A DNA stretch of 64,000 nucleotides, taken from contig DASSJT010000063.1 in assembly GCA_035691065.1 (NCBI GenBank), positions 19,489 to 83,488 of the forward strand, written 5' to 3'. This stretch comes from Dermatophilaceae bacterium. GTDB taxonomy: Bacteria > Actinomycetota > Actinomycetes > Actinomycetales > Dermatophilaceae. Both the position numbers and the translations under genes were made by a program. The notes below the pieces were generated by a model. The model was not told the origin of the DNA and ran no database searches. It was given only the letters and a program-made list of their open reading frames with translations. Shown piece by piece: positions 2,006 through 60,320 of the stretch; position 1 is the stretch's first letter; every line of letters begins with the position of its first letter.

Positions 2006-2015
2006 CGCCGCCTGG

Positions 2016-3322: not shown

Positions 3323-5169
<1,847 letters not shown>

Positions 5170-5176
5170 GGAGGCC

Positions 5177-7251: not shown

Positions 7252-7425
7252 AGGGCCGCAACCCTAGCCAATTCCGTTGTGCGACATGCCGAGGCCCTGT
7301 TGCCGGCCCGGGGTCATGGGTTGTGTTATGGCGGCGGTCGGCCCGCGCTCGAGGGCCGCCCATCGTGGCTGGGCGGGAGTGCCCGGGCGGGCGTGATTGG
7401 GCGGGCGTGGCTGGGCGGGGCTCGC

Positions 7426-7728: not shown

Positions 7729-7807
7729 GCCTCGAGTCTAAGCCGCCGGACCGAGCCTCCCGCGGACGGAGGCCGTCCCCGGAGGACGGGTGGCAGCGCA
7801 GCGGAAG

Positions 7808-8395
7808 TCAGTTCATCGAGGGGTCTTCGGGGAAGGTCGCCACGAACGCGAGCTGGTCGCGCTGCCGCCGCAACACCCGCACCCACATGCCGGCCGGGTC
7901 GTCGCTGAAGGCGTCCCTGTTCTCGGCATCCACGACGTACCAGCTCCCCGTGCGGATCTCGACCTCGAGCTGCCCGGGCGACCAGCCGGCATACCCCGCG
8001 AAGATCCGCAGGCCGGCGATCTCGGGGATGACGAGTACGGGAGGCGTGTCGAGGTCGATAAGGGCGATGCCCCCGAAGAGCCGCTTCACTCCGAGGGGCT
8101 CCACGCCGTCGCCCGGGACGGTGACCAGCCCCAGCGCCGAGTCGAGCCCGACCGGTCCGCCCTGGAACAGCCGCTGTGGGCGGGTCGCGTGCTCCTGCCA
8201 GCCGGGCAGGACCGCCTCGATGTCCGCGTCCATGGGCCGGTTCAGGATCACGCCCTGGGCTCCGTCCTCGTCATGGTGCAGGAGCAGCACGACGCTGCGG
8301 TGGAAGATCCCGTCGCCGATCTGCGGGGTCGCCACCAGAAGCTGTCCGGTCAGGCTGTCGCCGTCCACAGATCCATTGTGCCCATGACAGGCCAA
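7808..8395 (-). CDS. YqgE/AlgH family protein (UPF0301)
   Basis: 195 aa. LTGQLLVATPQIGDGIFHRSVVLLLHHDEDGAQGVILNRP is typical of the family. Confidence 0.85.
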   Translation of the reverse strand: MACHGHNGSVDGDSLTGQLLVATPQIGDGIFHRSVVLLLHHDEDGAQGVILNRPMDADIEAVLPGWQEHATRPQRLFQGGPVGLDSALGLVTVPGDGVEPLGVKRLFGGIALIDLDTPPVLVIPEIAGLRIFAGYAGWSPGQLEVEIRTGSWYVVDAENRDAFSDDPAGMWVRVLRRQRDQLAFVATFPEDPSMN

Positions 8396-8497
8396 CCGCT
8401 CCGGTCGACGTCGAGACTCGCCCCGCGTCGCTGTGGTGTCGCGCTGTGGTGTCGTGCGGTGTTGTCGCGGCGTTGGGTCGGCGTGTCGGCTGCGGGA

Positions 8498-16312: not shown

Positions 16313-16679
16313 TGGTGGAGGTGGCGGGAATTGAACCCGCGTCCATTGACGGGAGACCAGGACTTCTCCGGGTGCAGTGCGCTCAGGCTTTTCTCGGCCC
16401 CAAGGCTCGCGCGCACACGTTCCCTGACAGGCCCAGTTGAGTGAGAGTCCCGCGCAGCCCCCCAACATGGCTACGCAGCAAGCTTCCTAGCTGACGCCAG
16501 GCACTGAGACGGAAGCTAGCTCAGGCTGACGGACTTCGGGGCTCGCTCAGGCGGCGAGGGCGAAGTCGGTGCGCTTGGTGTTGGCACCTATTGGTTTGCA
16601 AGGAGCGTTAACGAGATAACCCTGCATCCTCGACCCGCTTCCCCTGGTATGCCGACCAATGTCGAAACCGATCACCCCC
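16313..16679 (-). ncRNA. ssrA: tmRNA (transfer-messenger RNA)
   Basis: The minus strand reads 5' GGGGGTGATCGGTTTCGAC ... GGACGCGGGTTCAATTCCCGCCACCTCCACCA 3'. The acceptor stem has a G3:U pair. The internal tag reading frame GCC AAC ACC AAG CGC ACC GAC TTC GCC CTC GCC GCC TGA gives ANTKRTDFALAA. smpB is nearby. Confidence 0.95.
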
Positions 16680-22902: not shown

Positions 22903-23369
22903 CAGCGCCCCCTGGAGTGGAGTGCGCGCTCGGCGTCGCGGCGGTCCTGCCGCTCACGAAGCGCCTGGCGCTTGTCGTAGGACTTCTTGCCCTTGGCGAT
23001 GGCGATCTCGACCTTGGCGCGGCCGTCCTTGAAGTACAGCGAGAGGGGAACGATGGTGTGGCCGCTCTCGCGCGTCTTCTGCGCGATCTTGTCGAGCTCG
23101 CGACGGTTGAGCAGCAGCTTGCGGCGCCGGCGGGGGGTGTGGTTGGTCCAGGTGCCGGCGACGTACTCGGGGATGTGGACCCCCTCGAGCCAGAGCTCGT
23201 CGCCCCGGAAGGTGGCGTAGCCGTCGACAAGCGAGGCGCGGCCCATCCGCAGGGACTTCACCTCGGTGCCCATCAAGACCAGGCCGGCTTCGAAGGTGTC
23301 CTCGATGAGGTAGTCGTGGCGCGCCTTGCGGTTGCTCGCAATCACCTTGCGCCCCTGCTCCTTGGCCAC
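22902..23369 (-). CDS. smpB: SsrA-binding protein SmpB
   Basis: 155 aa: [32 protein letters not shown]...[15 protein letters not shown]. Confidence 0.95.
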
Positions 23370-46786: not shown

Positions 46787-47266
46787 TCAGGGGCTGAGCT
46801 CGGCGCGGGCCCGCGACTCGACCGTGATGGTGACCGAGCCGCCCAAAGCCGAGAGGGCGGGGCCGATGAGCGGCAGGTCGGCCTGCCCGGTCAGCCGGAC
46901 CACCGCGGTCTGTCCGTCCGGAGTTCCCGTTCCCGACACCACCCACCAGCCGATCATGCCGACCGGGAGGGGCCTCGACGCGAGGTACTGCTCCGCGGTG
47001 GTCCGGACCGTGGCGTCGCTCACCGCCACGGCATGGTCCAGCCCCTTCTGGTATGCCGTGGTGTCCAGTGAGTCCGCGGCGTCCAGAGCCGCGCCGTCGG
47101 CGGCGTCGAGCAGTCGCATTCGCGACAGCTGGGCGGAGGTCACGGCGATGCCACCGACGATCAGTGTTGCAGCGATGAGTGTCATCGCCAGGATCAGAAT
47201 CGAGATCTGTCCGCGTTCACCGCCCGGTCGGGGCCGGTGGATGCGCTGGCTGCCGTTGGGAGTCAC
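46787..47266 (-). CDS. TadE/TadG-like pilus assembly protein (pseudopilin-like)
   Basis: 159 aa. Single N-terminal TM GQISILILAMTLIAATLIVGGIAV. Last gene of the tad operon. The ATG overlaps the upstream stop. Confidence 0.65.
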   Translation of the reverse strand: MTPNGSQRIHRPRPGGERGQISILILAMTLIAATLIVGGIAVTSAQLSRMRLLDAADGAALDAADSLDTTAYQKGLDHAVAVSDATVRTTAEQYLASRPLPVGMIGWWVVSGTGTPDGQTAVVRLTGQADLPLIGPALSALGGSVTITVESRARAELSP

Positions 47267-47802
47267 GGCGCATTCCGGAACCGGTCGACGGTCGACAGGT
47301 GCCGCGCCGTGACGGGGATTTCGAGTGGGACCAGCCGGCGCGCGAAGGAGGGAACCAGCGGGAGCGGTACGGTGACCGTCGCGGTCACCTCGACCCGACC
47401 CTCGGGACGCAGGCAGGGCAGGCCGTCGCAGTCGATGACCAGCGAGGTTCCACCGCGAAAACCTTGGTCCTCGAAGGCGATTCGGGCTGCGGCGTTCGCT
47501 CGTGCCTCTGCCGTCTCGGCGGATGTGGCGGTCACGAAGGCGCGCCCGGCCTCCCGCGCGGCCTGGGTGGTCGCGAAGGCGCCGGCCTGTAGCCGGCTCA
47601 CCATCAGGACCAGGTAGATCAGCGGCACCAGCATGAGGACGCCGAGGTAGACGAACTCGACCACCGCACTGCCTCCCTCGCCGGACAGCCGCCGACCGCG
47701 GCCTTCCGCACCGGACAGCGGCCCAACACCGCGCCGCCCCTCACCGGACGGGCGCCGACCGGGGTCCCCCCGACCGGCCGCCCGACATACGGCATGGATC
47801 AC
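47263..47802 (-). CDS. TadE-like protein
   Basis: SAVVEFVYLGVLMLVPLIYLVLMV TadE-type N-terminal segment. The GTG at 47802 overlaps the upstream stop (GTGA). The start is uncertain. Confidence 0.6.
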   Translation of the reverse strand: MIHAVCRAAGRGDPGRRPSGEGRRGVGPLSGAEGRGRRLSGEGGSAVVEFVYLGVLMLVPLIYLVLMVSRLQAGAFATTQAAREAGRAFVTATSAETAEARANAAARIAFEDQGFRGGTSLVIDCDGLPCLRPEGRVEVTATVTVPLPLVPSFARRLVPLEIPVTARHLSTVDRFRNAP

Positions 47803-48188
47803 TGGGACTCCAGGTAGGCGCGACCGACCACGTCGAGCCGACCGTCTGGCCCGAATGGGCCGATCACGGGCAGCGGGGCGCGGACGTGCACGGCGACCAC
47901 CCCAACGCCGTCGACGGTCTCGACACTGGCCGAGACGTCCTGGGCGAACGTTGCCGAGATGGACCGCGCGATCAGCTGTCGGGCCCTCGCCGCTCCCTCC
48001 TCGGGTGCGGCGTCCGCCCGAGCGCCCAGCCGGGCGCCCTCGGATGCGCATGAGATCAGGGTGTTGCGGATGTGCATGGCAAGACCGACCTGGAAGACCG
48101 CGACGAAGACGAGCGTGACCAGCCCGGAGACCATGGCGAAATCGGCGATGGCCGCGCCGCGCTCACGGCGGACCCCATGGTGGTCCAC
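47799..48188 (-). CDS. TadE family protein
   Basis: ERGAAIADFAMVSGLVTLVFVAVFQVGLAMH TadE-type N-terminus. I propose the GTG at 48188; the longer track ORF overlaps flp. Confidence 0.6.
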   Translation of the reverse strand: MDHHGVRRERGAAIADFAMVSGLVTLVFVAVFQVGLAMHIRNTLISCASEGARLGARADAAPEEGAARARQLIARSISATFAQDVSASVETVDGVGVVAVHVRAPLPVIGPFGPDGRLDVVGRAYLESQ

Positions 48189-48283
48189 AAGGCCTTTGCC
48201 GGCTCGCGGGCGGTCACCTGTGTCGCAGCCAGGCCGGCCACCCAGCCGGCTGGCCGGTCGTGGTCGCACCGGCGGCACCTGGT

Positions 48284-48505
48284 TCAGGGTCCGGTCACGC
48301 TGTTCATCGCTCTGGTGAACAGCGCCTGGAGCTGGTTCTGGGCGACGCCCCACAGGACCGCGACCAGGCCGGCGGTCATGAGCGTGATGAGCACCCAGCC
48401 GGGGACGTCACCCCGCTCCCGGCCCGGGCCGGTGGCGCGGCGCACCAGGGCCAGGGCGCGCACCTGCGCGTGCGTCAGCGAGTAGGTGAGGTCTCGGGTC
48501 ATCAT
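48284..48505 (-). CDS. Flp-type pilin-like protein (DUF4244-like)
   Basis: At most 73 aa. Charged leader, then the hydrophobic segment GWVLITLMTAGLVAVLWGV. It sits between tadC and the tadE genes, as in the mycobacterial Rv3656c-type locus. Confidence 0.55.
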   Translation of the reverse strand: MMTRDLTYSLTHAQVRALALVRRATGPGRERGDVPGWVLITLMTAGLVAVLWGVAQNQLQALFTRAMNSVTGP

Positions 48506-48536
48506 GTCGGCGGAGTGCCTCTCTGTGCGGCGTGGG

Positions 48537-49472
48537 TCAGATCGTGAAGCGGAAGAAGGTAAACCCGGGGAAGACGAGGAAGAGCACGGTGATGGGCAGT
48601 ACCAGAAAGACGACGGGGACCATCATCAGGATCTCCTTGCGGCCACCTGCCTCCATCACCTGCCGACGGCCTGCCTCTCGAACGTCCTGGGCCTGAGCCC
48701 TCAGCACATCGGCCAAAGGGGTCCCTCGCTGGACGGCGACCACGATGCCGTCGACGAAGCGGGACAGGCTGATCAGCCCGGTGCGGTCGGCCAGCCCCTG
48801 GAGGGCGGTGGGAAGGTTGGCGCCCGCGCGCGCATCGGCGAGGCACCGGGACAGCTCGGCGGACAGCTCGCCCCGGGAGAGGCGACAGACCCGCTCCAAG
48901 GCCCCGACGGCGCCCTCTCCGGCTCCGACCGCCAGCGCCAAGAGTTCGGCAATCGTGGGGAACTCGGCCAGCATCCGCTGCTCGCGCCGGTTGGCCTGGG
49001 CGCTCAGGGCCTGGTCCCGGGCCACGACGCCCGCGCCGGCGAAGGACAGCGTCACCACGACGACCGGCATTGCGGAGGTGCCGTTCAGCACCCACATCAG
49101 AGCGCCGACGACGACTCCGCAGGCGCCTCCCGCGGCACCCCAGAGCACCTGCTCCGCCCGGAACCGCTCGAGGTCGGGTGGCCGGCCGGCGCGTTGAAGG
49201 CGACGTCGCACCGATGCCGCCCCGCCGAGCATCCGCTCCACCGCGGCGGACAGGTCGGCAAGCACCGGCATGAGCAGGGCCCCGACGGTGCCCCCGACCG
49301 CGAAGCGGTCCTGGGCGAGCAGCCTCGACGGTATCGGCGTGTCCCGAAGGTAGGGCAGCAGGCGCCCAGCCAGCCCTGGCCTGCGGCGGTGCGGCAGACC
49401 GGCATTCATCAGCAGCAGCCCCAGCCCAACAGTCGCACCGAGCACGGCGCCGGTGCGTGGCAGGCCGGTCAC
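48537..49472 (-). CDS. tadC: type II secretion system F family protein TadC
   Basis: 311 aa from the GTG at 49472, overlapping the tadB stop. T2SS-F-type C-terminal domain (LADRTGLISLSRFVDGIVVAVQRGTPL) and terminal TM segments. Confidence 0.75.
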   Translation of the reverse strand: MTGLPRTGAVLGATVGLGLLLMNAGLPHRRRPGLAGRLLPYLRDTPIPSRLLAQDRFAVGGTVGALLMPVLADLSAAVERMLGGAASVRRRLQRAGRPPDLERFRAEQVLWGAAGGACGVVVGALMWVLNGTSAMPVVVVTLSFAGAGVVARDQALSAQANRREQRMLAEFPTIAELLALAVGAGEGAVGALERVCRLSRGELSAELSRCLADARAGANLPTALQGLADRTGLISLSRFVDGIVVAVQRGTPLADVLRAQAQDVREAGRRQVMEAGGRKEILMMVPVVFLVLPITVLFLVFPGFTFFRFTI

Positions 49473-50338
49473 CGCAGCACCCGCTCGTCCTCGGGCAGGC
49501 GACCGATCCACATCATGAGCCGATAGGCAACCAGGCTCAGCACCGCGCCGAAACCGAGAACCGCCGCACCGAGACGGGTGTTGTAGGCCTGTACCGCCTC
49601 CGCCCGAGAGCAGAGCATGACCAGCACGATCCAGGGGGCCGCGACCGCCAGCCGCGCGGCATTGACGGTCCAGCCCTGCCGGGTCTCCAGCTCCGCCCGC
49701 GTGCGAGCGTCCTCCCGCAAGAACGAGGAGAGGGTTCGCAGCAGGTTGCCGAGGTCGCTTCCGCCAACCTCGCGGGCGATGCGCAGCGACTCGACCAGCC
49801 GGTCGCCCACCGGATCGCTGAGCCGCTCCTTCAGGCGGTTGAGGCAGTCCTGGAACCGGCCCGTGGTTCGGTAGTCCTCGCCGAAGGCGGCGAAGGCCGG
49901 CCGCAGCTCCTCGGGGCCGCGGACGGCGAGCTGCGCAAGTGCCTCGGGGAGGGCCATCCCGGCCCTGACCGCGGAGGCGATGTTGTCCACGGCATCGGGC
50001 CACAGGTCCCGCAGGGTTGCGCGCCGGCGCCGAGCGCGGAGTCTCACGAGGGCGATAGGGCCCCACCCCGCCAGCACCGCGAAGCACACCGCAATGGCCG
50101 GGACCGAGCTCACGGCAAGGATCAGCAGGAACGCCATGACGGATCCGATGGCACAGGAGGTGAGGAGAGCTCGAGGGCCAACGGACTCGTAGCCGGCCTG
50201 GACCAGCTCGTCACGAAGCCGCGCCAAAACCATGCTGCCCCGCACCGGTTGGTGAGAACCCGAGGCGGGAGCCCAGCAAGACCACCAGATGCAGAAGAAC
50301 CCCACGCCCATGACGAGTCCGATCAGCAAACCTCTCAC
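49469..50338 (-). CDS. tadB: type II secretion system F family protein TadB
   Basis: 289 aa. TM-cytoplasmic domain-TM layout (LWPDAVDNIASAVRAGMALPEAL). Confidence 0.75.
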   Translation of the reverse strand: MRGLLIGLVMGVGFFCIWWSCWAPASGSHQPVRGSMVLARLRDELVQAGYESVGPRALLTSCAIGSVMAFLLILAVSSVPAIAVCFAVLAGWGPIALVRLRARRRRATLRDLWPDAVDNIASAVRAGMALPEALAQLAVRGPEELRPAFAAFGEDYRTTGRFQDCLNRLKERLSDPVGDRLVESLRIAREVGGSDLGNLLRTLSSFLREDARTRAELETRQGWTVNAARLAVAAPWIVLVMLCSRAEAVQAYNTRLGAAVLGFGAVLSLVAYRLMMWIGRLPEDERVLR

Positions 50339-50347: not shown

Positions 50348-51568
50348 TCACTGCGCCAAGAGAGCGGCGACGTCGTAGCCCGCGCGCTCGAACCGGTCCG
50401 GGTGGGGCGGATAACCCTCGGCCCGCACGAGTCGGCCATCCCGTTGAACGAACAGGTCGGCGATCTCGACGACGTCTCCCTCGACCCGCCCGGGAACTGC
50501 GGCGATCTCGCGCACCCGGCGGACCCCGTCGCGCTCGAGGGCCGCATGCACGACGAGGTCGATCGAGCCCGCGACGGTCGGGACGACGAACCGTGAGCCC
50601 ACGTTCTCTCCAGCCAGCAGCGGAAGTGTGCACATCTTGGTCACGGCCTCGCGAGCGCTGTTGGCATGGATGGTGCACATGCCGGGGACGCCGCTGTTGA
50701 GCGCGATCAACAGGTCCAGCGACTCTGCCTGCCGGACCTCGCCGACGATGATGCGCGAGGGCCGCATCCGCAGGGCCTCTTTGACCAGCTTGCGCAGCGG
50801 CACCTCTCCCGTGCCCTCGAGGCTGGGCTGACGGCACTGCATCGAGGCCACGTCGCGCAGGGGGATCTTCAGCTCGAAGACCTCTTCGCACGTAACGATC
50901 CGCTCCCGCGGCGGGATCGCCGCGGCCAGGCAGTTGAGGAGGGTGGTCTTTCCGGCCTGGGTCCCCCCGGCGACGAGGATGTTGAGGCCGGAGGCGACGG
51001 CTGCCTCGAGGAACCGGGCAGCCTGCTTGGTCAGCGTCCCGAGCCGCACGAGGTCGTCGAGGTGGTCAGCCTTGACGACGAACTTGCGGATGTTGACGAA
51101 CCAGTGCTCTCTGGTGATGTCGGGGATCACGACATGCAGACGGGAGCCGTCGGGCAGAACAGCGTCGACGAATGGCGACGAAAGGTCGACCCGTCGCCCT
51201 GACGACTTGAGCATCCGCTCGACCAGGTCGCGAACCTCATCTCCCGTGAGAATCGTGTTGGTGAGCTCGGCGACACCGCTTCTGGCCACGAACACCTTCG
51301 AGGGCTCGTTGACCCAGATCTCCTCGATCTGCGGATCGTCGAAATAACGCTGTAGTGGCCCGAATCCGGCAACGCTGTCGAGCACTGCCTTGACGGCGTC
51401 ATCGAGGTTGCCGAGCACCGGCAGGCCGCCGTGCATCGCCCGGTCGTCGTAGTCGTTGACCGCCTCCCGCACGAGCCGCGAGACCGCCGCCGGGTCGCGG
51501 GCAGGGTCGAGTCCGGTGCGGCGGATGAGCTCGCGGACCTCGTCCTCGACGGTGCGCACAGCTTCCAC
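50348..51568 (-). CDS. tadA: Tad/Flp pilus assembly ATPase (CpaF/TadA family)
   Basis: 406 aa from the GTG at 51568 (GGGGGAGG RBS 7 nt upstream). Walker A GGTQAGKTT, and secretion-ATPase Asp and His boxes (RIIVGEVR, TIHANS). Confidence 0.9.
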   Translation of the reverse strand: MEAVRTVEDEVRELIRRTGLDPARDPAAVSRLVREAVNDYDDRAMHGGLPVLGNLDDAVKAVLDSVAGFGPLQRYFDDPQIEEIWVNEPSKVFVARSGVAELTNTILTGDEVRDLVERMLKSSGRRVDLSSPFVDAVLPDGSRLHVVIPDITREHWFVNIRKFVVKADHLDDLVRLGTLTKQAARFLEAAVASGLNILVAGGTQAGKTTLLNCLAAAIPPRERIVTCEEVFELKIPLRDVASMQCRQPSLEGTGEVPLRKLVKEALRMRPSRIIVGEVRQAESLDLLIALNSGVPGMCTIHANSAREAVTKMCTLPLLAGENVGSRFVVPTVAGSIDLVVHAALERDGVRRVREIAAVPGRVEGDVVEIADLFVQRDGRLVRAEGYPPHPDRFERAGYDVAALLAQ

Positions 51569-51804
51569 GCGATTGCCTCCCCCAAGCGCCGATGCCCAAC
51601 GAACGCGACAGATGCGCGGCACAGCATAGGAACTCGCGCAAACTTCGTCCAACGACTGTCCACAGGCTGGCTGGCTTCCCAAGGTCGACCAATGCGCGCT
51701 GAAACTCCACCAAAGTCCACCACCCCGGCCGATCGTGATGTTTTGCGGCATAACTGTGGGTAACTCCGCGGCAACCCTCTCCAGAGTGGCTACCGTGCGC
51801 ATCC

Positions 51805-54800
51805 ATGAACCTGACGTTGTCCATCGCGGTGCCGGAGGTGGGGACCCCGCCGGTCGACGTCGACGTCAGCGCACCACCCGGCACGACGGCCGGCGAGCTT
51901 GCGGTTCTGCTCGCTGCCGAGTTCGGCATGGCGAGTGGCCGGCTCCGATGCAGTACCGGATCCATTCCCGACGACGCGCCGGTTGGTTTGCCACCCCTCC
52001 TCCACAGGGCATGTCTGTCACTTGTCGCTCGCGGGCACCGTCAGTCGCGAGCACACCCGCGACCCACTCCGCTGGAACTCGCGGTTGTGTCGGGTCCGGA
52101 CTGCGGTCGACGGTTCCCTCTCGAGCCCGGCCGCCACGTGCTGGGGCGGGGTGCCGGAGCAACACTCAGGGTGGACGACCCGGGACTCTCCCGCACCCAC
52201 GCCATTCTCTCCGTAGGTCCCGACGGCATTCACGTGGCCGACGCGGGATCCACCAACGGCATGCATCTCGATGGAGAACCGGTGCCTCGAGCGGGCACAG
52301 CGCTAGCTCCCGGCCAGACACTCCGGGCCGGTCACTCCCTCATCCAGGTCCGGAGTCCTGGCGTGCGGCCCGCCGCCGTGGAGCCCGACGGCCACGGACA
52401 CCTGCTCGTCAACCGAGCGCCTCGGGTGCCCACTAAGACAGAGCCGGTGACGATCACACTCCCCACCCCGCCGGAGCGACGTCGCAGCGCGCGGCTCCCC
52501 TGGCTGGCAATGCTGCTGCCGCTTCCGGTGTGCGCGGTGCTGGCGGCGCTGATGGGCCCACAGCTGCTTCTGTTCACCCTGATGACGCCAGTCATGATGC
52601 TGGGAAACGCAGTGAGCGACCGGGTCACTGGGCGACGGGAGTATGCCGGTCAGCTGGCCGAGTTCGAACGTGCCAGTGCCGCTGTAGCACAGAGCGTCGT
52701 CGAGGTGTGTCGTCACGACGTAGCCATGCGCCGCATGAAGTCCCCGGATCCGGTCACCGTCCTCCAGACCGCCCAGGGGCCGGGCAGTCGGCTCTGGGAG
52801 CGGCGCCGAAGCGATCCCGATGTGCTCGCACTCCGTGTCGGAAGCGGAAATGTGCCGGCTTCGGTTCGCATCGTCGACCCGTCGGTGGGGCACCAGGGCC
52901 GCGTGCCCAGCCTTTCCGAGGCACCGGTGATCATCGACCTGGAACGCCTGAAAGTGCTCGGGATCGCAGGGCAGCGCCGTGAAGTCGCTCCCCTGCTCCG
53001 AAACATCCTTGGCCAGCTGACCACCCTCCATTCGCCGCGTGACCTGCGCCTGGTCGTGATTGCGGCACAAGAAGGCGCGGCGTCGGAATGGGGATGGGTA
53101 AGGCTTCTGCCCCACTGCGATGACGTGACATCGCTTGATCACGACCGATGTGCGTCGGTCATCGCAGCGCTCCAGCCGGACGGTGATGGGGCGCTGTCTC
53201 CTCATCGACGCCCGCACGCCGTCGAGCGGTCGGAGGCGGATGCCGAGACGGTGTGGAGCGGCACGCGAACAACGTTGGTACTCATGGGCTCCCGTGATCT
53301 GCGCGCCCAACCCGGCATCGCGCCTCTCCTGAGCCTGAGCCGGGGCACCGAGAACGGGCTGCGCATCATTGCCGTCGACGTTGATCGCTCTGCGCTCCCC
53401 CTGGAATGCCGAGCGGTGCTCGCCGTCGACTCCGATGGCGTCACAGCACACCTGGAGTCCCCAAACCACGAGGCGCCGTTCATCTTCGCGCCGGACGGAT
53501 GCAACGACTCCTGGGCGGAGCAGCTGGCCCGGGCGATGGCCTCGCTCAAGGACAACACGCCTGACGGTTCGACGGCCGTGCCTGAGGTGGTCCGACTCGC
53601 GGATCTGCATGGATCGGCCGTGTTCGACCCCGAGTCGATCGCTAGCAGCTGGACTTCATCCGCGGGTGTGACTGTCGCTGTCCTCGGCTCGGGCGCGGGC
53701 GGCCCGTTCTCGGTCGACCTGGTCCGGGACGGGCCTCACGTGCTGGTCGGTGGAACGACGGGGTCGGGCAAGTCGCAGCTACTTCAGACTCTGGTGGTCT
53801 CCCTGGCCCTTGCCAACCGGCCCGAGGATCTCGGGTTCGTGCTCGTCGACTACAAGGGTGGATCCGCCTTCAGTTCGTGCAGCAACCTCCCGCACACCGT
53901 CGGGATGGTCACCGACCTCGACGGCCATCTGGCGCAACGGGCCCTGCGGTCGCTGCGCGCCGAGCTGTCGCGTCGTGAACGGCTTTTCGCGAGAGTGGGT
54001 GCCACCGACTTCGACGACTACGGTGCCAAGGCAGGTGGAAACGACGAGACGCTCGGGCGGCTCGTGCTCGTCATCGACGAATTCCGAGCACTAGCAGAAG
54101 AGCTCCCCGAGTTCCTCGAGGAAATGGTGCGGCTGGCTTCGGTGGGCCGATCGCTGGGTGTCCACCTCGTCTTGGCAACGCAGCGGCCCGGCGGCATCGT
54201 CTCGGCTGACATCCGGGCCAACGTCAACCTGCGCATCGCCCTACGGTTTCGTGACCGCGTCGACAGCGAGGACGTCATCGAGTCGCCCGATGCGGCGGAG
54301 CTCGATGAGCGACATCGCGGTCGAGCGCTCGCCCGGTCTGGCGGTGGGCGGCTCATGGCATTCCAGACCGCGTGGCTTGGCGCCCGGGATCGGCAGGAGG
54401 AAGTGGCGGATCTGAGAGTCAGACGGCATGGTCTCCCGACGGGGGCGTATCCCGGGCCGTCGCCATCCGCCGACCTGAGAGGCCAGGATTCCCAACAGAC
54501 ACCCACGGACCTCGACCGGGTGGTCGCCGCCCTGTGTAGCGCCGCCGCGTCGGCCGGGTGCGCTCTCCCGCGACGACCCTGGCACCCACCCCTGCCCGAG
54601 GCTGTTCCACTCGATGACCTTGCGCCGTCCAGTGCGCCCAGCCACGAGGTCCGCGTCGACGGGCAAGCAATCGACCGGCCCCCTTTGGGGAAGGTGCCGG
54701 TGAGCGTCCCGTGGGGCTTGGCGGACGACCCGGCAGGTCAGCGCCAGCCCGTGTTCTGGTGGGACGGGGCGGGCAGTGCCAACTCCGCTGGTCATTGGAT

Positions 54801-56244
54801 CATCGGCGGTGCAGGGGGTTCTGGCCGCACGTCGGCCCTCCGGACGTTGGCCTTTGCGGCCACGCGACGACACATCGCCGACGACCTGCACGTGTACGTC
54901 ATCGACGGCTCCTCCAACGCCCTGCGGGCCCTCGAGAGCCTTCCCCATGTCGGGGCGGTCGTTCCTCGGGCCGACTTCGCTCGCGTCGTGCGGCTGGTCA
55001 ACCGCCTGGCCGGCGAAGTCGCCCGAAGACACCAGCTGCTCGCGGCCGCGGGCTTCTCCAGCCTGGACGAGTGGGTCGCATCCGTCGATGAGCACCAGGC
55101 CACCAGGGCTGGCACACCGGCATACCTGCTGCTGCTCGTGGACGACTGGGACCTGCTTTGGCGGGACAGCGAGCAGCTCGATCACGGCCAGACGGCGGAG
55201 CGGCTTGCCGGTCTGCTGCGCGAAGGCGGGCCGGTCGGGCTGCGGGCCGTTGTGACCGGCGATCGGAGTGTGCTGATCGGTCGCGGCACGGCTTGGGCCA
55301 CCCACCGGCTCGTCCTGCGTCTTGCGGATCCCGGTGACGCCGCTGTGGTGGGCGTTCCGCGTGACGCCATCCCGGGGCACCAGCCACCCGGCCGGGGGGT
55401 CGTGGCGGGCAGCGGGATGGAGCTACAGCTGGCCCACCTCGGGGAGGTGCCTGACGGGGCTGCGGCTGCTCGCGCCATCGCGGACCTCGCTGCGACCCTG
55501 CACGAGCCGGTGGTCAACCTCCCCTTCCGTGTGGCGACGATGCCTGCCGATGTGGTGACGACCCAGCTCACAGCGACCGCTCGGGGTCTGGAGTTCGCTG
55601 TGGGCGGCGAGGAATGCTGCACCATAGGGCTCGAGTTCGAGCGCCACGGCCGTCAGGTCCTGATCGCCGGGCCAGCACGCAGTGGCAAGTCCACGGCTCT
55701 GGCCACCCTTGCGCTGGCTGCTCGACGAAAGGGCTACCACGTCGCCATCGTCGCCCCCAACGGTGTGGAACGTGGTTCGGACCGCCTGGCGGAGCGCGCC
55801 TTCGACGTGGTCGGCAGTGACGAGGCCGCGCGGCTGTCAGCGCTGTGCCGCGACCAACCCGACCTCGTCGTCTGTGTCGACGACGCTGACCAGCTGCTCG
55901 ACACCCCAGCCGAGGCCGTGCTTCGGGCGTTTCGGGGCACGCTCGACCGAACCAGTGGTGCCATCATCTGCGCCGCGAACTCGGTTGCCCTCGCCAGCCA
56001 GTTCCGGGGTGTCGCGGTCGAGGTCAGTCGCCACCAGACCGGACTGCTGCTCAGCCCCCGGACCGTCGCCGACGGAGACCTCTTGGGGATCCGGGTGCCC
56101 AGGGGAACGGCCAGCCACCACCCGGGTCGGGGCTTCTTCGCCTGTCGCGGCGAAGCCGTCGAGGTGCAGGTCGCTCGGCCGCCAGACATGGCGAACCGAC
56201 CGGAGAGAAACCGACCGGACAAGCGGGCTCAGCCCTTGACGTAG
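51805..56244 (+). CDS. FHA domain-containing FtsK/SpoIIIE-family triple-ATPase (EssC/EccC-like architecture)
   Basis: 1479 aa. FHA region aa ~90-175 (GRHVLGRG...LRVDDPGLSRTHAIL...STNGMHLDG), two TM segments aa ~231-270, and three P-loops: GGTTGSGKS (aa 649-657, Walker B VLVIDEF), GGAGGSGRT (aa 1001-1009) and GPARSGKST. Confidence 0.85.
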   Translation: MNLTLSIAVPEVGTPPVDVDVSAPPGTTAGELAVLLAAEFGMASGRLRCSTGSIPDDAPVGLPPLLHRACLSLVARGHRQSRAHPRPTPLELAVVSGPDCGRRFPLEPGRHVLGRGAGATLRVDDPGLSRTHAILSVGPDGIHVADAGSTNGMHLDGEPVPRAGTALAPGQTLRAGHSLIQVRSPGVRPAAVEPDGHGHLLVNRAPRVPTKTEPVTITLPTPPERRRSARLPWLAMLLPLPVCAVLAALMGPQLLLFTLMTPVMMLGNAVSDRVTGRREYAGQLAEFERASAAVAQSVVEVCRHDVAMRRMKSPDPVTVLQTAQGPGSRLWERRRSDPDVLALRVGSGNVPASVRIVDPSVGHQGRVPSLSEAPVIIDLERLKVLGIAGQRREVAPLLRNILGQLTTLHSPRDLRLVVIAAQEGAASEWGWVRLLPHCDDVTSLDHDRCASVIAALQPDGDGALSPHRRPHAVERSEADAETVWSGTRTTLVLMGSRDLRAQPGIAPLLSLSRGTENGLRIIAVDVDRSALPLECRAVLAVDSDGVTAHLESPNHEAPFIFAPDGCNDSWAEQLARAMASLKDNTPDGSTAVPEVVRLADLHGSAVFDPESIASSWTSSAGVTVAVLGSGAGGPFSVDLVRDGPHVLVGGTTGSGKSQLLQTLVVSLALANRPEDLGFVLVDYKGGSAFSSCSNLPHTVGMVTDLDGHLAQRALRSLRAELSRRERLFARVGATDFDDYGAKAGGNDETLGRLVLVIDEFRALAEELPEFLEEMVRLASVGRSLGVHLVLATQRPGGIVSADIRANVNLRIALRFRDRVDSEDVIESPDAAELDERHRGRALARSGGGRLMAFQTAWLGARDRQEEVADLRVRRHGLPTGAYPGPSPSADLRGQDSQQTPTDLDRVVAALCSAAASAGCALPRRPWHPPLPEAVPLDDLAPSSAPSHEVRVDGQAIDRPPLGKVPVSVPWGLADDPAGQRQPVFWWDGAGSANSAGHWIIGGAGGSGRTSALRTLAFAATRRHIADDLHVYVIDGSSNALRALESLPHVGAVVPRADFARVVRLVNRLAGEVARRHQLLAAAGFSSLDEWVASVDEHQATRAGTPAYLLLLVDDWDLLWRDSEQLDHGQTAERLAGLLREGGPVGLRAVVTGDRSVLIGRGTAWATHRLVLRLADPGDAAVVGVPRDAIPGHQPPGRGVVAGSGMELQLAHLGEVPDGAAAARAIADLAATLHEPVVNLPFRVATMPADVVTTQLTATARGLEFAVGGEECCTIGLEFERHGRQVLIAGPARSGKSTALATLALAARRKGYHVAIVAPNGVERGSDRLAERAFDVVGSDEAARLSALCRDQPDLVVCVDDADQLLDTPAEAVLRAFRGTLDRTSGAIICAANSVALASQFRGVAVEVSRHQTGLLLSPRTVADGDLLGIRVPRGTASHHPGRGFFACRGEAVEVQVARPPDMANRPERNRPDKRAQPLT

Positions 56245-56597
56245 GAGAGTTTCTCGCAGACCTTGCCCTCACGGAATCGCATCACGTCGACACCGCGGAC
56301 ATGGCCGGGTGATCCGTCCGCGCTGGTCCACGAGTAGGTCCAGCGCACCACGGCACGATCGCCGCTCAGGAAGGACTCCTCCTCGGCGAACACCGGATCG
56401 ATGCTGCCGCGCACGATCTCAGACCAGACCTTCAGCACCGCGTCCACCCCCTCGAACCGATGGCCGTCCGGTGCCGGGCTGGTCGACTCGAACACCACGT
56501 CATCGGTGACCATGCCCCGCAGGGCCTGGAGGTCAGCGCGAGCGAAGGCGGCCGAGAAGGCCCGCACCAGTTCCGAACTTGCCCCTCCGGTGCTCAC
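56229..56597 (-). CDS. SnoaL-like / NTF2 family protein
   Basis: 122 aa. FARADLQALRGMVTDDVVFES...RWTYSW...DVMRFREGKVCEKLSYVKG is typical of the SnoaL-like fold. Confidence 0.7.
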   Translation of the reverse strand: MSTGGASSELVRAFSAAFARADLQALRGMVTDDVVFESTSPAPDGHRFEGVDAVLKVWSEIVRGSIDPVFAEEESFLSGDRAVVRWTYSWTSADGSPGHVRGVDVMRFREGKVCEKLSYVKG

Positions 56598-57247
56598 CCT
56601 GCGCCCTCACCCTCGAGTGCTCGCCCTGCGCGCCCACCCTCGCGAGTCCGATGGCGCCCGCTCCCCGTGCCGCCGCCGGGCGTGGTCCACGCCGCAGACC
56701 GCCCGAAGGCTGCCAGGAGGTCGGTCTGGGGGTCGCCAGCATCGTCCGGACGTACCGCCACCGCGCCGCCGGCGCGATACATCTCCTCACGGTCGGCGAA
56801 CCAGGCCGCCACCTCATCGACCAGCTCCGGGTCCATGCGTCGGTCGGCCCCCACTGCCGCCGCGAGGTCCCAGCCGTGGATGAGGTGGTCGGCACAGAGT
56901 TGGCGCGCGTACTCCTCCATGTCCTCCTCGCCGTAGGAAAGGTGCACCCGCCCGCCAGTGGGCAGCAGCGCAGCCGCCGACGAGCCCGCCTCCTCAGCCG
57001 CCTCATGGGCCGATGCCACGGGGTCGTCGCCCAGCGGGTCGCCGTCGAAGCGGTGGCCGGCCTCCGCGATGGTGGCCCCCTCCAGCAGGGGCGCGGTCCA
57101 CCGGTCCTCGGCCACCACGTGGTTGACCAAGTCGCGCACACTCCACTTCGTGCATGGCGTCGGATCCGACCACTGCCCCTCGCCAACCGTGTCCACGCGG
57201 GTCACCCACCAGTCGAGCGTTCGCTGGTACAGCGTGGGAAGGTCCAT
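56594..57247 (-). CDS. mycothiol-dependent maleylpyruvate isomerase N-terminal (DinB-like) domain protein, TIGR03086-like
   Basis: 217 aa: PTPCTKWSVRDLVNHVVAEDRW...LCADHLIHGWDLAAAVG. Confidence 0.75.
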   Translation of the reverse strand: MDLPTLYQRTLDWWVTRVDTVGEGQWSDPTPCTKWSVRDLVNHVVAEDRWTAPLLEGATIAEAGHRFDGDPLGDDPVASAHEAAEEAGSSAAALLPTGGRVHLSYGEEDMEEYARQLCADHLIHGWDLAAAVGADRRMDPELVDEVAAWFADREEMYRAGGAVAVRPDDAGDPQTDLLAAFGRSAAWTTPGGGTGSGRHRTREGGRAGRALEGEGAG

Positions 57248-57269
57248 GGCTGTGCTCCTCTCGGTCGCG

Positions 57270-58124
57270 TCAGGGAAGCTCGCGGCGCGAGCCCGATGTC
57301 AATGCGGCGAGGAGGCCCAACAGCGCAACCACAAGCACGGTGCCGCCGATCAGGCCTTGGCCACCCTGGAACAAGCCCCACGCCACAGGCAGCAGCAGGG
57401 CGTTCCAGACGGCGGTCGGCGTTCCCGGCCATCCCGCGCCGCGCCACCAGGCCACAGCCAGCACAGCCAGCGCGACCGCGAAGATGGCGATGAGCACGAT
57501 CGACATCACCACACGTACCGGGTTGTCGCTCTCCCCCCGTGCGAGGCCAACCGCATAAAAGCCGCAGATGCCCAGGAGCGCCAGCGCTTGAAGACCGGAC
57601 ACGACTGACGCGAGCGTCCTTCCGGCGGTGCGGGGGGTCGACGACCCCTCGGGCGGGCTCGACGTCTGGTCCTGCCTGCCGTCTGGCAGGTTCGACGCCT
57701 GGTCCTGCCTGCCGTCCGGCGGGCTCGACGTCTGGTCCTGCCTGCCGTCCGGCAGGTTCGACGTCTGGTCCTGCCTGCCGTCCGGCGGGTTCGGCGCCTG
57801 GTTCTGCCTGCCGTCCGGCGGGTTCGGCGCCTGGTCCTGCGTGCTCCCCGATGCGTCTCGCCCATTGCCCGGCTTCGCGGTTCCCGGCGTGGCGCGTGGC
57901 GTGGCTCCCCGGGCGGCGCCCCGGGACGTGGCCGCCCCGGCCTTGCGTTCCCTGCTGCGGCGAGGCCGGCTCTGGGGTGAAGTCACGCCAGCAAGAGTAG
58001 CCACGCATGCATTGATCTCCGAGGAGTGGGCACAGGACCCCAATGACTGTTTCCAGCGCACGAACGCGGACCCCCGACGAGCGCGCGAGCCGTGCACCCG
58101 GCATACTGGAGTGGCAGGTTCCAC
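57270..58124 (-). CDS. hypothetical membrane protein with 11-aa tandem repeats
   Basis: C-terminal 4-TM domain (LQALALLGICGFYAVGL...). The N-terminal region is PPDGRQDQTSN x ~5.5. The start is uncertain. Confidence 0.55.
   Translation of the reverse strand: MEPATPVCRVHGSRARRGSAFVRWKQSLGSCAHSSEINACVATLAGVTSPQSRPRRSRERKAGAATSRGAARGATPRATPGTAKPGNGRDASGSTQDQAPNPPDGRQNQAPNPPDGRQDQTSNLPDGRQDQTSSPPDGRQDQASNLPDGRQDQTSSPPEGSSTPRTAGRTLASVVSGLQALALLGICGFYAVGLARGESDNPVRVVMSIVLIAIFAVALAVLAVAWWRGAGWPGTPTAVWNALLLPVAWGLFQGGQGLIGGTVLVVALLGLLAALTSGSRRELP
57650..57850. repeat. 33-bp in-frame tandem repeat, about 6 copies
   Basis: CTGGTCCTGCCTGCCGTC recurs at 57666, 57699, 57732, 57765, 57798 and 57831. Confidence 0.85.
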
Positions 58125-58344
58125 GCCCTGAGACGGATAGGTCCGGGGAACACAAATCGGCGCTGCACCGTTGGCAAGACGGGGCTGGTGCCTAACAATG
58201 GTGCCTGCAACCCGGCAAACCCGTGACGGCCGCCCCCTGCGCCGTTACCATGGCGGTTTGCCTCGCACGATCGCCGCCGCGCCCCAAGCCAGAGGCTCGG
58301 AGCCCGGCGTGCAACCCACGACGCTGACAAGGAGCACGATCCTC

Positions 58345-58593
58345 ATGGACTGGCGCGACCGCGCTGCCTGCCTGGACGAAGACCCGGAGCTGTTCTTCCC
58401 CATCGGAAACACTGGGCCGGCCCTTCTCCAGATCGAAGAGGCGAAGGCTGTGTGCCGCCGCTGTGAGGTCATCGACACCTGCCTGAAGTGGGCCCTGGAG
58501 TCCGGTCAGGACGCCGGCGTGTGGGGAGGTCTGTCCGAGGACGAGCGTCGCGCGCTGAAGCGTCGCAACGCTCGCGCCCGTCGGGCGGGCTGA
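58345..58593 (+). CDS. whiB1: WhiB family transcriptional regulator (WhiB1/WblE-like)
   Basis: 82 aa with an AAGGAG RBS. MDWRDRAACLDEDPELFFP...AKAVCRRCEVIDTCLKWALE...GVWGG, with four conserved Cys. Adjacent to a pdtaS-like gene, as in mycobacteria. Confidence 0.88.
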   Translation: MDWRDRAACLDEDPELFFPIGNTGPALLQIEEAKAVCRRCEVIDTCLKWALESGQDAGVWGGLSEDERRALKRRNARARRAG

Positions 58594-58719
58594 ACCCCGC
58601 GTCTGTGTCTGCAGAATCCGGTCCCTGGGCCGGACGGACGGCAGGGTCGATGGTCTGACACCTGGCCACCGCCGAAGGAGCCGCGCTGGAACCCTTGTTC
58701 CCGCGCGGCTTCTCTGCGT

Positions 58720-58780
58720 CTGCGCAACAGCCTGGGCAACAGCTTGCGCAACAGCCTGGACAACAGCCCTGGGCAACAGG
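58720..58780. repeat. 12-bp tandem repeat x5 (GCGCAACAGCCT-like)
   Basis: CAACAG recurs at 58725, 58737, 58749, 58761 and 58774, in the convergent whiB1/pdtaS spacer. Confidence 0.75.
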
Positions 58781-58814
58781 AGGCCCCGCCTTCAGCGAAG
58801 GGTGACCAGGTCCC

Positions 58815-60320
58815 TCAGTCGGTCACTCCTGCCGGACGGGCGTCCCGCTCCAGCGGCCGCAGCATCGCATTGAACTGCACGCGGGTGCCATGCGGTTTGG
58901 CCGGCTCCCAGCGGATCCGGCCGCGCAGGTCCTGGACGAGCGAGGTGACGATCCTCGTCCCGAGCCCCGCGAGCCCTGGACGGAAGCCGGCCGGCAGCCC
59001 GGCCCCGTTATCGGTGATGGTCACGGTCAGCTGGTCCTCGCCGTCTACGGGCTCTCGATGGGCAGCGATCTCGACCCGGCCACCGTGGTCGCCCAGGCCG
59101 TGCTCGGCGGCGTTCTGCACCAGCTCGGAGATGATCATCGCCAGCGCGGTTGCGTCCTCGGCTCGCATCCGCCCGAACGTGCCGGTCACCGACGACTCGA
59201 TCGTGTGCTCGCTCGTCGCCACCTCGACGACTGCCTTCAGCCCCCGCACCGCGATCTCGTCGAAGTTCACCGTCTCGTCGAACCCCTGGCTGAGCGTCTC
59301 GTGCACGAGGGCGATCGTGCCCACCCGCCGCACCGCCTCCTCCAACGCGTAGCGGCTCTGCCCCTCGGGCATCCGCCGCGCCTGCAGCCGCAGCAGTGCC
59401 GCCACGGTCTGGAGGTTGTTCTTGACCCGGTGGTGGATCTCCCGGATGGTCGCATCCTTCGTGAGCAGCTCGCGCTCCCGGCGCCGCAGCTCCGACACGT
59501 CGCGCAGCAGGATCAGGGCCCCCCGCCGCTGGCCGCGCTCGGTGAGCGGGATGGCGCGCATCGACACACTCGCCATGCGCGAGGCCACTTCCGAACGCCA
59601 GGGCGCTCGGCCGGTGACGACCAGGGCGAGGGACTCATCGACCGGGTCCTCGGCCTTCTCGACCACGTCGGCAACCACCTTGGACAGCACCTCGCCGATC
59701 ACGTCACCGACGTGCCCGAGGCGGTGGATCGCCGACACCGCGTTGGGGCTGGCGTAGACCACGACACCTTCGGTGTCGAGGTGCATGACGCCGTCCCCCA
59801 CCCGCGGCGCCCCGCGCCGGAGCCCGGTCGGCGCCGAGGCATTCGGGAACTCCCCCGCCGCGATCATGGCGGCCAGTGAGTCGCCCAAGGCCCGGTAGGT
59901 GACCTCGAGCCGGCTCGGTGTGCGAGCGCCGCCCAGGTTGGTATGCCGGGTGATCACCGCCAGCGCCCGCCCGTCCTTGACGACAGGGATGGCCTCCTCG
60001 CGCACCGGCACGTTGTCGTCGAAGTCGGCGCCGGAGTCCCGCACGATCGACCTGGTTGCGTAGGCCTCGCTCAGCATCCGCCGTCGGCCGATCCCGCTGC
60101 TCCATCCCACGATGTCCTCGTAGAACACCATCTGGCCGGTGGTCGGGCGCACGTGAGCCACCGATACCCATTCCTCGTCGGACTGCCGTGCCCAGAGCAC
60201 GAGGTCGGCGAATGACAGGTCGGACAGCAGCTGCCAGTCGCCGACCACCAGGTGCAGCCACTCGATCTCTTCTGCAGAGAGGTCTGTGGTGCGCTGGAGC
60301 GAGTCGTTCAGCGTTGCCAC
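58815..60320 (-). CDS. pdtaS: sensor histidine kinase PdtaS-like (GAF-PAS-HisKA_2-HATPase)
   Basis: 501 aa. N-terminus EIEWLHLVVGDWQLLSDLSFADLVLW, H-box IHHRVKNNLQ, and ATPase motifs (ELVQNAAEHG, DNGAGLP). Confidence 0.85.
   Translation of the reverse strand: MATLNDSLQRTTDLSAEEIEWLHLVVGDWQLLSDLSFADLVLWARQSDEEWVSVAHVRPTTGQMVFYEDIVGWSSGIGRRRMLSEAYATRSIVRDSGADFDDNVPVREEAIPVVKDGRALAVITRHTNLGGARTPSRLEVTYRALGDSLAAMIAAGEFPNASAPTGLRRGAPRVGDGVMHLDTEGVVVYASPNAVSAIHRLGHVGDVIGEVLSKVVADVVEKAEDPVDESLALVVTGRAPWRSEVASRMASVSMRAIPLTERGQRRGALILLRDVSELRRRERELLTKDATIREIHHRVKNNLQTVAALLRLQARRMPEGQSRYALEEAVRRVGTIALVHETLSQGFDETVNFDEIAVRGLKAVVEVATSEHTIESSVTGTFGRMRAEDATALAMIISELVQNAAEHGLGDHGGRVEIAAHREPVDGEDQLTVTITDNGAGLPAGFRPGLAGLGTRIVTSLVQDLRGRIRWEPAKPHGTRVQFNAMLRPLERDARPAGVTD

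Follow-up and report, generated by a model that had tools for sequence, protein, structure and literature searches.

A ubiquitin-like/FHA-domain ATPase encoded beside a Tad operon in a Dermatophilaceae bacterium: a putative motor of an unnamed type VII secretion variant

Introduction

Several forms of type VII secretion system (T7SS) have been described, and the types T7SSc to T7SSj have been defined (Garrett, Higginson and Palmer 2024; PMC11217815). T7SSd, found in Actinomycetota, combines an ATPase whose FHA domain has phosphothreonine-binding residues with a kinase and a giant Ig-like protein, and lacks a ubiquitin-like protein. In Bacillota, T7SSg and T7SSh are “always encoded adjacent to Tad pilus genes”, an arrangement left unexplained, and T7SSf has a TadZ-like component (PMC11217815). 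An Esx system of Schaalia defends against Saccharibacteria; the Esr pathway comprises a surface Ig protein, MoxR, a vWA protein, a transglutaminase, a kinase and an FHA output protein, and “numerous instances” of this output protein (EsrG) fused to EccC have been mentioned (Wang et al., 2026, bioRxiv; PMC13622651). In the B. subtilis structure, the ATPase YukB clasps YukD between its FHA domains and its DUF domain, and assembly depends on YukD. This study concerns a related ATPase gene, here called T together with its protein, at 51805..56244 (+) of a 64-kb stretch of contig DASSJT010000063.1 from a Dermatophilaceae bacterium (the window), where it is divergently paired with tadA of a Tad pilus operon.

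T is a real, intact member of a widespread and barely described family of actinobacterial T7SS ATPases. It is probably, though far from certainly, the self-contained and phospho-gated motor of an unnamed T7SS variant of Actinomycetes, and its pairing with the tad genes is read as inherited synteny. Literature searches on T7SSs of Micrococcales and Intrasporangiaceae, and on FHA-EccC proteins of Streptomyces, turned up nothing specific, and a search for SCO4508, a putative FHA-FtsK protein of Streptomyces, was likewise unproductive.

Gene and domain architecture of T

T begins with ATG and encodes 1479 amino acids (aa). The encoded protein comprises a ubiquitin-like (Ubl) domain, an FHA domain, a two-helix transmembrane (TM) hairpin, a DUF domain and three P-loop domains, D1, D2 and D3, in an EccC/EssC-like arrangement. 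The public gene call (P0002) has 1265 aa and starts after the FHA domain, which removes both Ubl and FHA (window 51805-52449). Because homologues from the protein search cover 99% of the 1479-aa form and the fold of the N-terminus is predicted with confidence, the long form is supported as the right annotation in place of P0002. A first-pass annotation of the window had proposed this layout, apart from the DUF domain, from the letters, and it agrees with Pfam, NCBIfam and hydropathy analyses; the motifs that it read (GSGKS and IDEF in D1, GSGRT in D2, SGKST in D3) are present in the sequence.

The membrane anchor and ATPase domains can be compared across relatives. A genome scan gave a family sample of 80 loci, to which further relatives (L081-L085) were added; identity to the window T is 89% in L082, 69% in L081, 54% in L083 and 41% in L085. 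Residues 231-270 (52495..52614, +) are the sole region above the Kyte-Doolittle threshold of 1.6 and contain two adjoining hydrophobic segments. This hairpin is 100% identical in L082 and 88% in L081, with a family-wide mean of 47%. The DUF/D0 domain (approximately residues 273-600; 52621..53604, +) lies within the EssC and EccCa alignments, and its boundaries are approximate. D1 (53605..54384, +) carries Walker A GSGKS (K656) and Walker B VIDEF (D758/E759). Its Lys and Asp-Glu pair are invariant in 75 of 75 aligned homologues, and it is the most conserved domain of T across the family (mean identity 59%). D2 (54700..55449, +) has GGSGRTS, in which Arg replaces the Walker A Lys; this Arg occurs in 35 of 57 family members, whereas 16 of 18 outgroups have Lys. 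D3 (55591..56154, +) has RSGKST and a Walker B VDDAD. Its Walker A Lys is Arg in 45 of 57 family members, and the window T retains Lys.

Pfam finds FHA at residues 112-174, Yop-YscD_cpl at 94-182 and FtsK_SpoIIIE in two stretches (E=1.5e-54), the best being 615-796 in D1. The third P-loop region (1280-1371) is scored as nSTAND_NTPase5, with AAA P-loop matches. The NCBIfam model of EssC (TIGR03928) aligns with residues 203-1209 (7e-140; 468 bits vs cutoff 778), that of EccCa (TIGR03924) with 221-858 (4e-106; 356 bits vs 509) and that of EccCb (TIGR03925) with 906-1304 (1.4e-87; 294 bits vs 347). T belongs to a distinct clade and is an equivalog of neither EssC nor EccC. Its best relatives of solved structure are T. 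curvata EccC (4NH0, 5e-65) and B. subtilis YukB (9QKS, 2.5e-61), and EccC5 is also among them. The two-helix anchor, DUF/D0 domain, three P-loop domains and catalytic Walker A/B residues of D1 that characterize EccC/EssC-type proteins are all found in T.

The N-terminus was modelled with AlphaFold2 on a 38-sequence alignment (residues 1-215 and 1-81). Residues 1-80 (51805..52044, +) form a beta-beta-alpha-beta-beta fold with pLDDT 92.6, and the mean pLDDT of residues 1-215 is 87.9. The best Foldseek matches of the Ubl in the Protein Data Bank are ubiquitin, SUMO, ISG15 and a bacterial ubiquitin-like protein, with TM-scores of 0.65-0.76. The first-pass annotation had likened this region to YukD/EccD-type domains. 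The beta-grasp fold bears out a ubiquitin-like domain, and membership of the YukD family was dropped: Pfam YukD (PF08817) matched none of 27 family N-termini, and the fold alone is supported. In the same scan, two N-termini matched the ubiquitin family PF00240 at 3e-4, and a precomputed PF08817 match is present in one distant homologue (P0099).

The FHA domain (residues 93-185; 52081..52359, +) keeps the phosphothreonine-binding residues R115, S129, H132 and N151 in at least 90% of 38 homologues. Its fold matches FhaA, GarA and OdhI (Foldseek TMt 0.83-0.91, 30-36% identity). It is 80-90% identical to the FHA domains of L082 and L081, with a family-wide mean of 43%. The conserved canonical residues and this fold match make a secretion ATPase controlled by a Ser/Thr kinase, one of the roles offered by the first-pass annotation, the best reading of T.

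T is under purifying selection, with a ratio of nonsynonymous to synonymous substitutions (dN/dS) of 0.23-0.32 against L081 and L082, and relatives as distant as 41% identity have an intact open reading frame (ORF) of 1458-1511 aa. Between 46 and 58 kb of the window, G+C content at third codon positions (GC3) is 0.77 in T and 0.81-0.85 in the tad genes, against about 0.9 in most neighbours, although the synteny is conserved. Weak codon bias or rapid evolution is the probable cause, and not recent transfer. Horizontal transfer of T was rejected as an explanation since synteny is kept across relatives of 41-89% identity. A defence-system reading was also rejected: in a PADLOC scan, D1 resembles mad8, SspH and HerA at the P-loop level only.

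A widespread family in Actinomycetes

The protein search found many homologues of T in Actinomycetes, 1200-1870 aa long and mostly 1400-1600 aa, all of which are named just ‘FtsK/SpoIIIE domain-containing protein’ in databases. Members occur in Streptomyces, Micromonospora, Frankia, Geodermatophilus, Microbacterium, Arthrobacter, Intrasporangiaceae, Streptosporangiales and Acidimicrobiia. A search of sequencing runs found the T sequence only in soil and paddy metagenomic DNA, in many such metagenomes. In a neighbour-joining tree without support values, all members from Actinomycetes fall in one clade that excludes Firmicute EssC and the T7SSd-like Coriobacteriia proteins (L076, L078). A Ubl profile matches the ATPase N-terminus in 49 of 64 family loci compared with 0 of 18 outgroups, and it detects no Ubl in the sampled T7SSd-like ATPases. 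The fused Ubl and the Lys-to-Arg changes in D2 and D3 mark the T clade of Actinomycetes.

The surroundings of family members were annotated from ORFs called with a GC3-based filter of our own, clustered and represented in Pfam searches; WXG100 genes were sought by profile within 10 kb on either side. Of 83 loci, family and outgroup together, 54 have a WXG100-like ORF. In the sister clade of the window (L012 and L031), a WXG100 gene lies divergently and directly upstream of T (Pfam 1e-16 and 2e-12). RHS toxins with a T7SS_signal N-terminus (PF21725) are encoded in 14 loci, and WXG100 or RHS-toxin neighbours are found in Streptomyces, Kineosporia, Frankia, Kribbella, Leifsonia and others. In some loci the genes near T encode Ser/Thr kinases and an RDD-FHA protein. 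EccB, EccD, EccE and mycosin are not recurrent among the neighbour clusters.

Eight loci (L021-23, L026, L029, L033, L039 and L047) have an Esr-type module directly upstream of T. This module encodes a giant Big_9/cadherin/fn3 protein, MoxR (AAA_3/bpMoxR), a DUF58 protein and a TgpA-type transglutaminase, and the loci come from Microbacterium, Pseudoclavibacter, Nocardioides, Cellulosimicrobium, Pseudarthrobacter and Iamiaceae. They correspond to the Esr pathway and to the arrangement in which EsrG is fused to EccC (Wang et al., 2026).

The first-pass annotation described T as an orphan. This holds locally, but T is no isolated case: other members of its large family lie beside WXG100 genes, RHS/T7SS_signal toxins, kinases or the Esr module. 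These neighbours are the basis for reading T as a putative phosphothreonine-gated T7SS motor.

Two further kinds of neighbour were observed. Proteins of cluster c5 (460-920 aa, no Pfam match) have a membrane segment at the N-terminal end, then an extracytoplasmic part, another TM segment and a cytoplasmic C-terminal domain. They occur in nine loci (L006, L009, L010, L015, L017, L018, L020, L034 and L036), where their gene lies next to the ATPase gene or at the distant end of the Tad operon beside it, and they are a candidate partner of the T7SS variant there. As a partner of the window T, c5 was discarded because the window has no homologue of it (best E=0.04). The second is a 240-aa protein whose gene separates the Tad operon from the ATPase gene in an Acidimicrobiales metagenome-assembled genome (L042 9203-9925, +), which scores 26.9 bits against a WXG100 cutoff of 27.3 and may be an extended WXG-type substrate.

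Proposed mechanism

In the proposed mechanism, the two-helix hairpin would anchor T in the membrane and support oligomerisation, and ATP hydrolysis by D1 would drive export. D2 and D3, with their degenerate Walker A motifs, may have a regulatory part and sense nucleotide or substrate, as their counterparts do in other EccC/EssC proteins. The FHA domain would dock on phosphothreonine produced by a Ser/Thr kinase encoded elsewhere, and such docking would switch secretion on post-translationally. The fused Ubl may brace the FHA domain against the DUF domain, a role suggested by the position of YukD in the B. subtilis structure. Both the kinase and the WXG100-type or toxin substrates of the window T are presumed to be encoded elsewhere in the genome. 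T is part of a vertically inherited core-chromosome block in which the Tad operon lies divergent from T, and T is followed by the small membrane protein, whiB, pdtaS, MOSC and gdh; the tadA pairing is dispensable for the retention of T.

T7SS partners were sought throughout the window. Six WXG100 profiles against all six-frame ORFs of at least 50 aa gave nothing better than E=0.03, and a second-round profile gave no match to window ORFs. Pfam annotation of about 40 window genes found no EccB, EccD, EccE, mycosin, EssA, EssB, EsaA, YukD, Ser/Thr kinase or MoxR. Genes for TsdA (WXG100), TsdD (Ser/Thr kinase), TsdH and TsdI are also lacking in the window, as are Esr genes (EsrA surface protein, MoxR, vWA/DUF58, transglutaminase and kinase/phosphatase). 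The local orphan status of T is confirmed across all 64 kb, beyond the smaller part for which the first-pass annotation had noted that T7SS genes were missing.

Pairing with the Tad operon

The gene tadA (50348..51568, -) starts with GTG at 51568 and encodes 406 aa with a Pfam T2SSE match (2.4e-38). It scores 252 bits against NCBIfam TIGR03819, below the 373-bit cutoff. Its ORF spans 50348..51802 (-), and the start was placed by 406-aa orthologues in L081 and L082, which upholds the 236-bp divergent spacer (51569..51804) given by the first-pass annotation. The remainder of the operon (46787..50338, -) has Pfam matches to T2SSF twice, TadE and Tad (PF13400). It contains tadB (49469-50338; T2SSF), tadC (48537-~49439; T2SSF), a 73-aa pilin-like gene (48284-48505), a TadE gene (47799-~48200; Pfam TadE), a TadE-like gene (47263-~47661) and a TadG-like gene (46787-47266), all on the minus strand. 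Matching operons are present in L081, L082, L085 and L002.

A proposal that T stands in for CpaE/TadZ at this position did not survive. T does not have the ParA/MinD-plus-receiver architecture, lies on the opposite strand and persists where Tad has been lost.

The adjacency with tadA is only partly conserved. Within the window clade, which consists of the window, L001, L002, L043, L054, L073 and L081-L085 (11 loci), the direct divergent pair is retained in L082 (spacer 235 bp), L002 (Humibacillus) and L085. In L081 a PNPOx gene lies between tadA and T; in L083 the insertion comprises PNPOx, glyoxalase and gene fragments; and L001, L054 and L073 have other insertions, the inserted kinds overall including GTPase and GGDEF-like genes. 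T has no Tad genes within 10 kb in L043, nor in L063, L068 and L071 outside this clade. In L084 (Phycicoccus badiiscoriae, JACCAB010000001.1), a 233-aa, 3'-truncated tadA stands beside an intact 1460-aa T, and an island of DpdD, large helicase and PLD-nuclease genes (1-9821), typical of a DNA-modification defence system, takes the place of the remaining Tad operon.

The more constant neighbours of T are on its other side: the small four-TM protein, whiB, pdtaS, MOSC and gdh. The order of T followed by these genes is found in L081, L083, L084 and L085 and partly in L054, L063, L068 and L071. The whiB-pdtaS-gdh synteny with T holds across relatives of 41-89% identity, and the whiB-side block also occurs in Arthrobacter and Isoptericola loci without Tad. 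T and the tad genes also differ in rate, with dN/dS of 0.05-0.06 for tadA and 0.05-0.07 for tadA/tadB compared with 0.23-0.32 for T. The insertions, the loss of Tad in L084, the constant whiB-side partners and this rate difference argue for inherited gene order and against obligate coupling of T and Tad.

The spacer contains two motifs, ACTGTCCACAGG (51655-51666) and ACTGTGGGTAAC (51753-51764), which are conserved in an alignment of the window with L082, L002 and L081. The first precedes tadA, and the related ACTGTGG(G/A)TAAC precedes T. In L002 (~6195-6215) the two motifs form a palindrome, GTCCACAGCTGTGGAT. The sequence TGTGGATAA is the reverse complement of the classical DnaA-box consensus, but it could be the site of any regulator. 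The motif TGTCCACAG is not enriched in the window (6 matches vs 14.7 expected), and a scan of the spacer for sigma-70 consensus promoters and terminators found none. In L081 the spacer is split by the inserted gene and each motif remains with its own gene (~9060-9075 and ~9960-9975), which indicates that a shared promoter region is not required.

Beyond the window clade, a TadA homologue lies upstream of and divergent from T in 12 of the 80 first family loci, and most loci are without Tad genes. Three Tad lineages flank family members: the window type, the Streptosporangiales/S. yokosukanensis type and the Acidimicrobiales type. TadA identity is 80-93% within the window type, 77-94% within the Streptosporangiales/S. 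yokosukanensis type and 29-40% between types. In the Streptosporangiales/S. yokosukanensis type, an RcpC/CpaB-like gene (cluster c7, weak Pfam match) lies between tadA and T. L036 and L042 have an extra ORF beside tadA that is CpaE-like on inspection and has no Pfam match.

Weighing the explanations

Several observations weigh against reading T as a phospho-gated T7SS motor in an inherited gene order. All three NCBIfam T7SS models score T below their curated cutoffs. The 64 kb yielded no gene for a substrate, a kinase or a T7SS accessory protein, and the same kinds of gene are lacking within 10 kb of T in all 11 window-clade loci, so that T7SS function in this clade is extrapolated from other clades. 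The T protein evolves about five times faster than tadA/tadB, which fits a conflict-related protein but also relaxed constraint. Lastly, the divergent position of three Tad lineages upstream of family members is more than chance, and simple synteny is insufficient to account for it.

This last observation bears on an alternative that we consider unlikely, though the strongest of the competitors, in which T and Tad are functionally coupled. They would be either co-regulated from the shared spacer or joined in a composite machine that depends on contact, the Tad fibre giving contact or a conduit and T exporting effectors. The coupling would be consistent with retention of the divergent pair from 89% to 41% T identity (L082, L002, L085) and with related motifs, CTGTCCACAG and CTGTGG(A/G)TAAC, preceding both genes. 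Tad-flanked members also fall in several subclades of the unsupported neighbour-joining tree (the window clade, Streptosporangiales with S. yokosukanensis, the Acidimicrobiales metagenome-assembled genome and L005), and T7SSg and T7SSh of Bacillota adjoin Tad and T7SSf has its TadZ-like component (Garrett et al., 2024). However, unrelated genes have been inserted between tadA and T in five loci of the window clade, L084 has kept T intact beside a tadA stump, and four loci have T with no Tad nearby. The scarcity of Tad among the first 80 loci, the fivefold rate difference and the separate motifs of the split L081 spacer speak against coupling as well.

A broader form of this view, which we hold to be distinctly improbable, is that the whole Ubl-FHA-EccC family is an unnamed minimal T7SS of Actinomycetes tied to Tad fibres. 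At least three Tad lineages would have been recruited to the divergent upstream position, in parallel with T7SSg/h of Bacillota, because Tad would supply cell contact or a path across the envelope for the effectors that the ATPase exports. In clades like that of the window, the pair would then operate with no classical WXG100 genes close by.

Equally doubtful is that T of the window clade is a stand-alone or repurposed ATPase, acting on another substrate or as an FHA signalling protein or scaffold, or else a slowly decaying relic. WXG100 is lacking within 10 kb in 11 of 11 window-clade loci and in the whiB-linked Micrococcales loci, T has a higher dN/dS and lower GC3 (0.77 vs about 0.9) than its neighbours, and the D2 Walker A is degenerate. 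Against this, the ORF stays intact at 1458-1511 aa down to 41% identity, D1 has invariant catalytic residues and surpasses every other domain in conservation across the family, the TM hairpin and FHA domain are also well conserved, and dN/dS is clearly below 1. In ESX systems and T7SSb, moreover, substrates are often encoded apart from the ATPase gene, which counts against a repurposed T.

A role as DNA translocase of the FtsK/SpoIIIE or TraB-like kind (segregation, conjugation or Tad-linked DNA uptake), which the first-pass annotation also offered, is highly improbable. In its favour are weak domain-level matches to FtsK (84 bits vs cutoff 1566) and plasmid TraB (33 vs 800), the resemblance of D1 to FtsK-like defence ATPases (PADLOC mad8, SspH) and the reported need for Tad pili in natural transformation of Micrococcus luteus. 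Against it, the DUF plus three P-loop domains, not one, are typical of protein-exporting EccC/EssC, the Pfam matches of T include no Ftsk_gamma DNA-binding domain, the family neighbours are protein substrates (WXG100, RHS toxins), and no mobile-element, relaxase or competence (ComEA/ComEC) genes are among the Pfam-annotated window genes.

The phospho-gated T7SS motor is the reading that we prefer. The Tad operon is a long-standing neighbour of T and not a demonstrated partner.

Genomic setting

The genes downstream of T form a synteny block from SnoaL to pdtaS (56229..60320, mixed strands) with conserved order in relatives. The SnoaL gene (56229-56597, -) and the MDMPI_N/DinB-like gene (56594-57247, -) are recognized by Pfam, as the first-pass annotation had suggested for these neighbours. 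They are followed by the gene of the small four-TM protein with a repeat extension (57270-58124, -), whiB (58171-58593, +; Pfam) and pdtaS (58815-60320, -; Pfam). The convergent 3' ends of T and the SnoaL gene overlap by 16 bp (56229-56244), and by 84 bp in the called genes of L081 and L082. The four-TM protein, whose gene is always found between T and whiB, has 284 aa in the window compared with 110-151 aa in relatives. The difference is due to an N-terminal extension that contains a 33-bp tandem repeat (57652-57844; 5.8 copies, 90% matches) that specifies PPDGRQDQxSN units.

On the Tad side, Pfam identifies fumarylacetoacetase, HPPD, helicases, malic enzyme, pyruvate carboxylase, smpB, an M23 peptidase, ftsX, ftsE, prfB and GDPD, and beyond pdtaS a methyltransferase, MOSC and NAD-GDH. 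A tmRNA gene lies at 16313-16679 (-), with the tag ANTKRTDFALAA, and smpB at 22902-23369 (-). These two genes, near prfB, ftsE, ftsX and the M23 peptidase, confirm that the window is a core-chromosome region. Its G+C content is 68-74%. Housekeeping genes flank the locus on both sides in L081-L085, the relatives used to approach the question, raised by the first-pass annotation, of ESX genes just beyond the window.

Significance

The T7SS classification lists T7SSa and T7SSd for Actinomycetota, and the Ubl-FHA-EccC family is widespread there under the annotation FtsK/SpoIIIE alone. The family combines a fused Ubl, a genuine phosphothreonine-reading FHA domain and degenerate D2/D3. The fused Ubl could explain why a separate ubiquitin-like gene does not accompany family loci. 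If phospho-gating is true, T would provide a simple single-polypeptide system for kinase switching of a T7SS. The family is linked as well to Esr, a recently reported pathway of defence against epibionts. T7SS-Tad adjacency has been observed in two phyla and is a testable lead on possible cooperation in contact-dependent antagonism. For the window itself, the practical result is a corrected 1479-aa annotation and a Tad pairing that should not be over-interpreted.

Comparison with known systems

T7SSg and T7SSh resemble T in that their ATPase gene adjoins a full Tad operon (PMC11217815). They differ from it in belonging to another phylum, in having ATPases without FHA and in gene clusters that include WXG100 and, as a gene of its own, a ubiquitin-like component.

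EccC of T7SSa/ESX shares with T the TM hairpin, DUF and D1-D3, is likewise actinobacterial and includes the best solved match, 4NH0. EccC has neither FHA nor Ubl, the latter being the N-terminal domain of EccD, whereas T carries both. ESX loci encode EccB, EccD, EccE, MycP and EsxA/B with EccC, and none of these lies close to T, either in the window or at family loci. EssC/YukB of T7SSb is similar to T in its N-terminal FHA, TM hairpin, DUF and three ATPase domains, and in the Ubl module beside FHA and DUF. The two FHA domains of EssC lack phosphothreonine-binding residues and bind the EssB pseudokinase, whereas T has a single canonical FHA domain. In T7SSb, YukD is a separate protein and EssA, EssB and EsaA are present; in the window the Ubl is fused in T, and EssA, EssB and EsaA are lacking.

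T7SSd differs from T in that the T clade excludes the Coriobacteriia proteins L076 and L078 in the unsupported neighbour-joining tree, in the fused Ubl of T and in TsdA/D/H/I, which the window lacks. TsdC of T7SSd and the T family are both found in Actinomycetota, have an N-terminal FHA of the phosphothreonine type and occur without EccB/D/E or mycosin, and in both systems a Ser/Thr kinase and a giant surface protein of Ig-like type are associated.

The Esr-linked FHA-EccC fusions are mentioned in passing in PMC13622651, where the fused Ubl, the D2/D3 Lys-to-Arg changes, the orphan clade and the Tad adjacency are not described. Unlike the loci of these fusions, the window is without an Esr gene, kinase, phosphatase or esx gene. 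Like T, the Esr-linked fusions belong to the class Actinomycetes and have an FHA domain fused N-terminally to an Esx ATPase.

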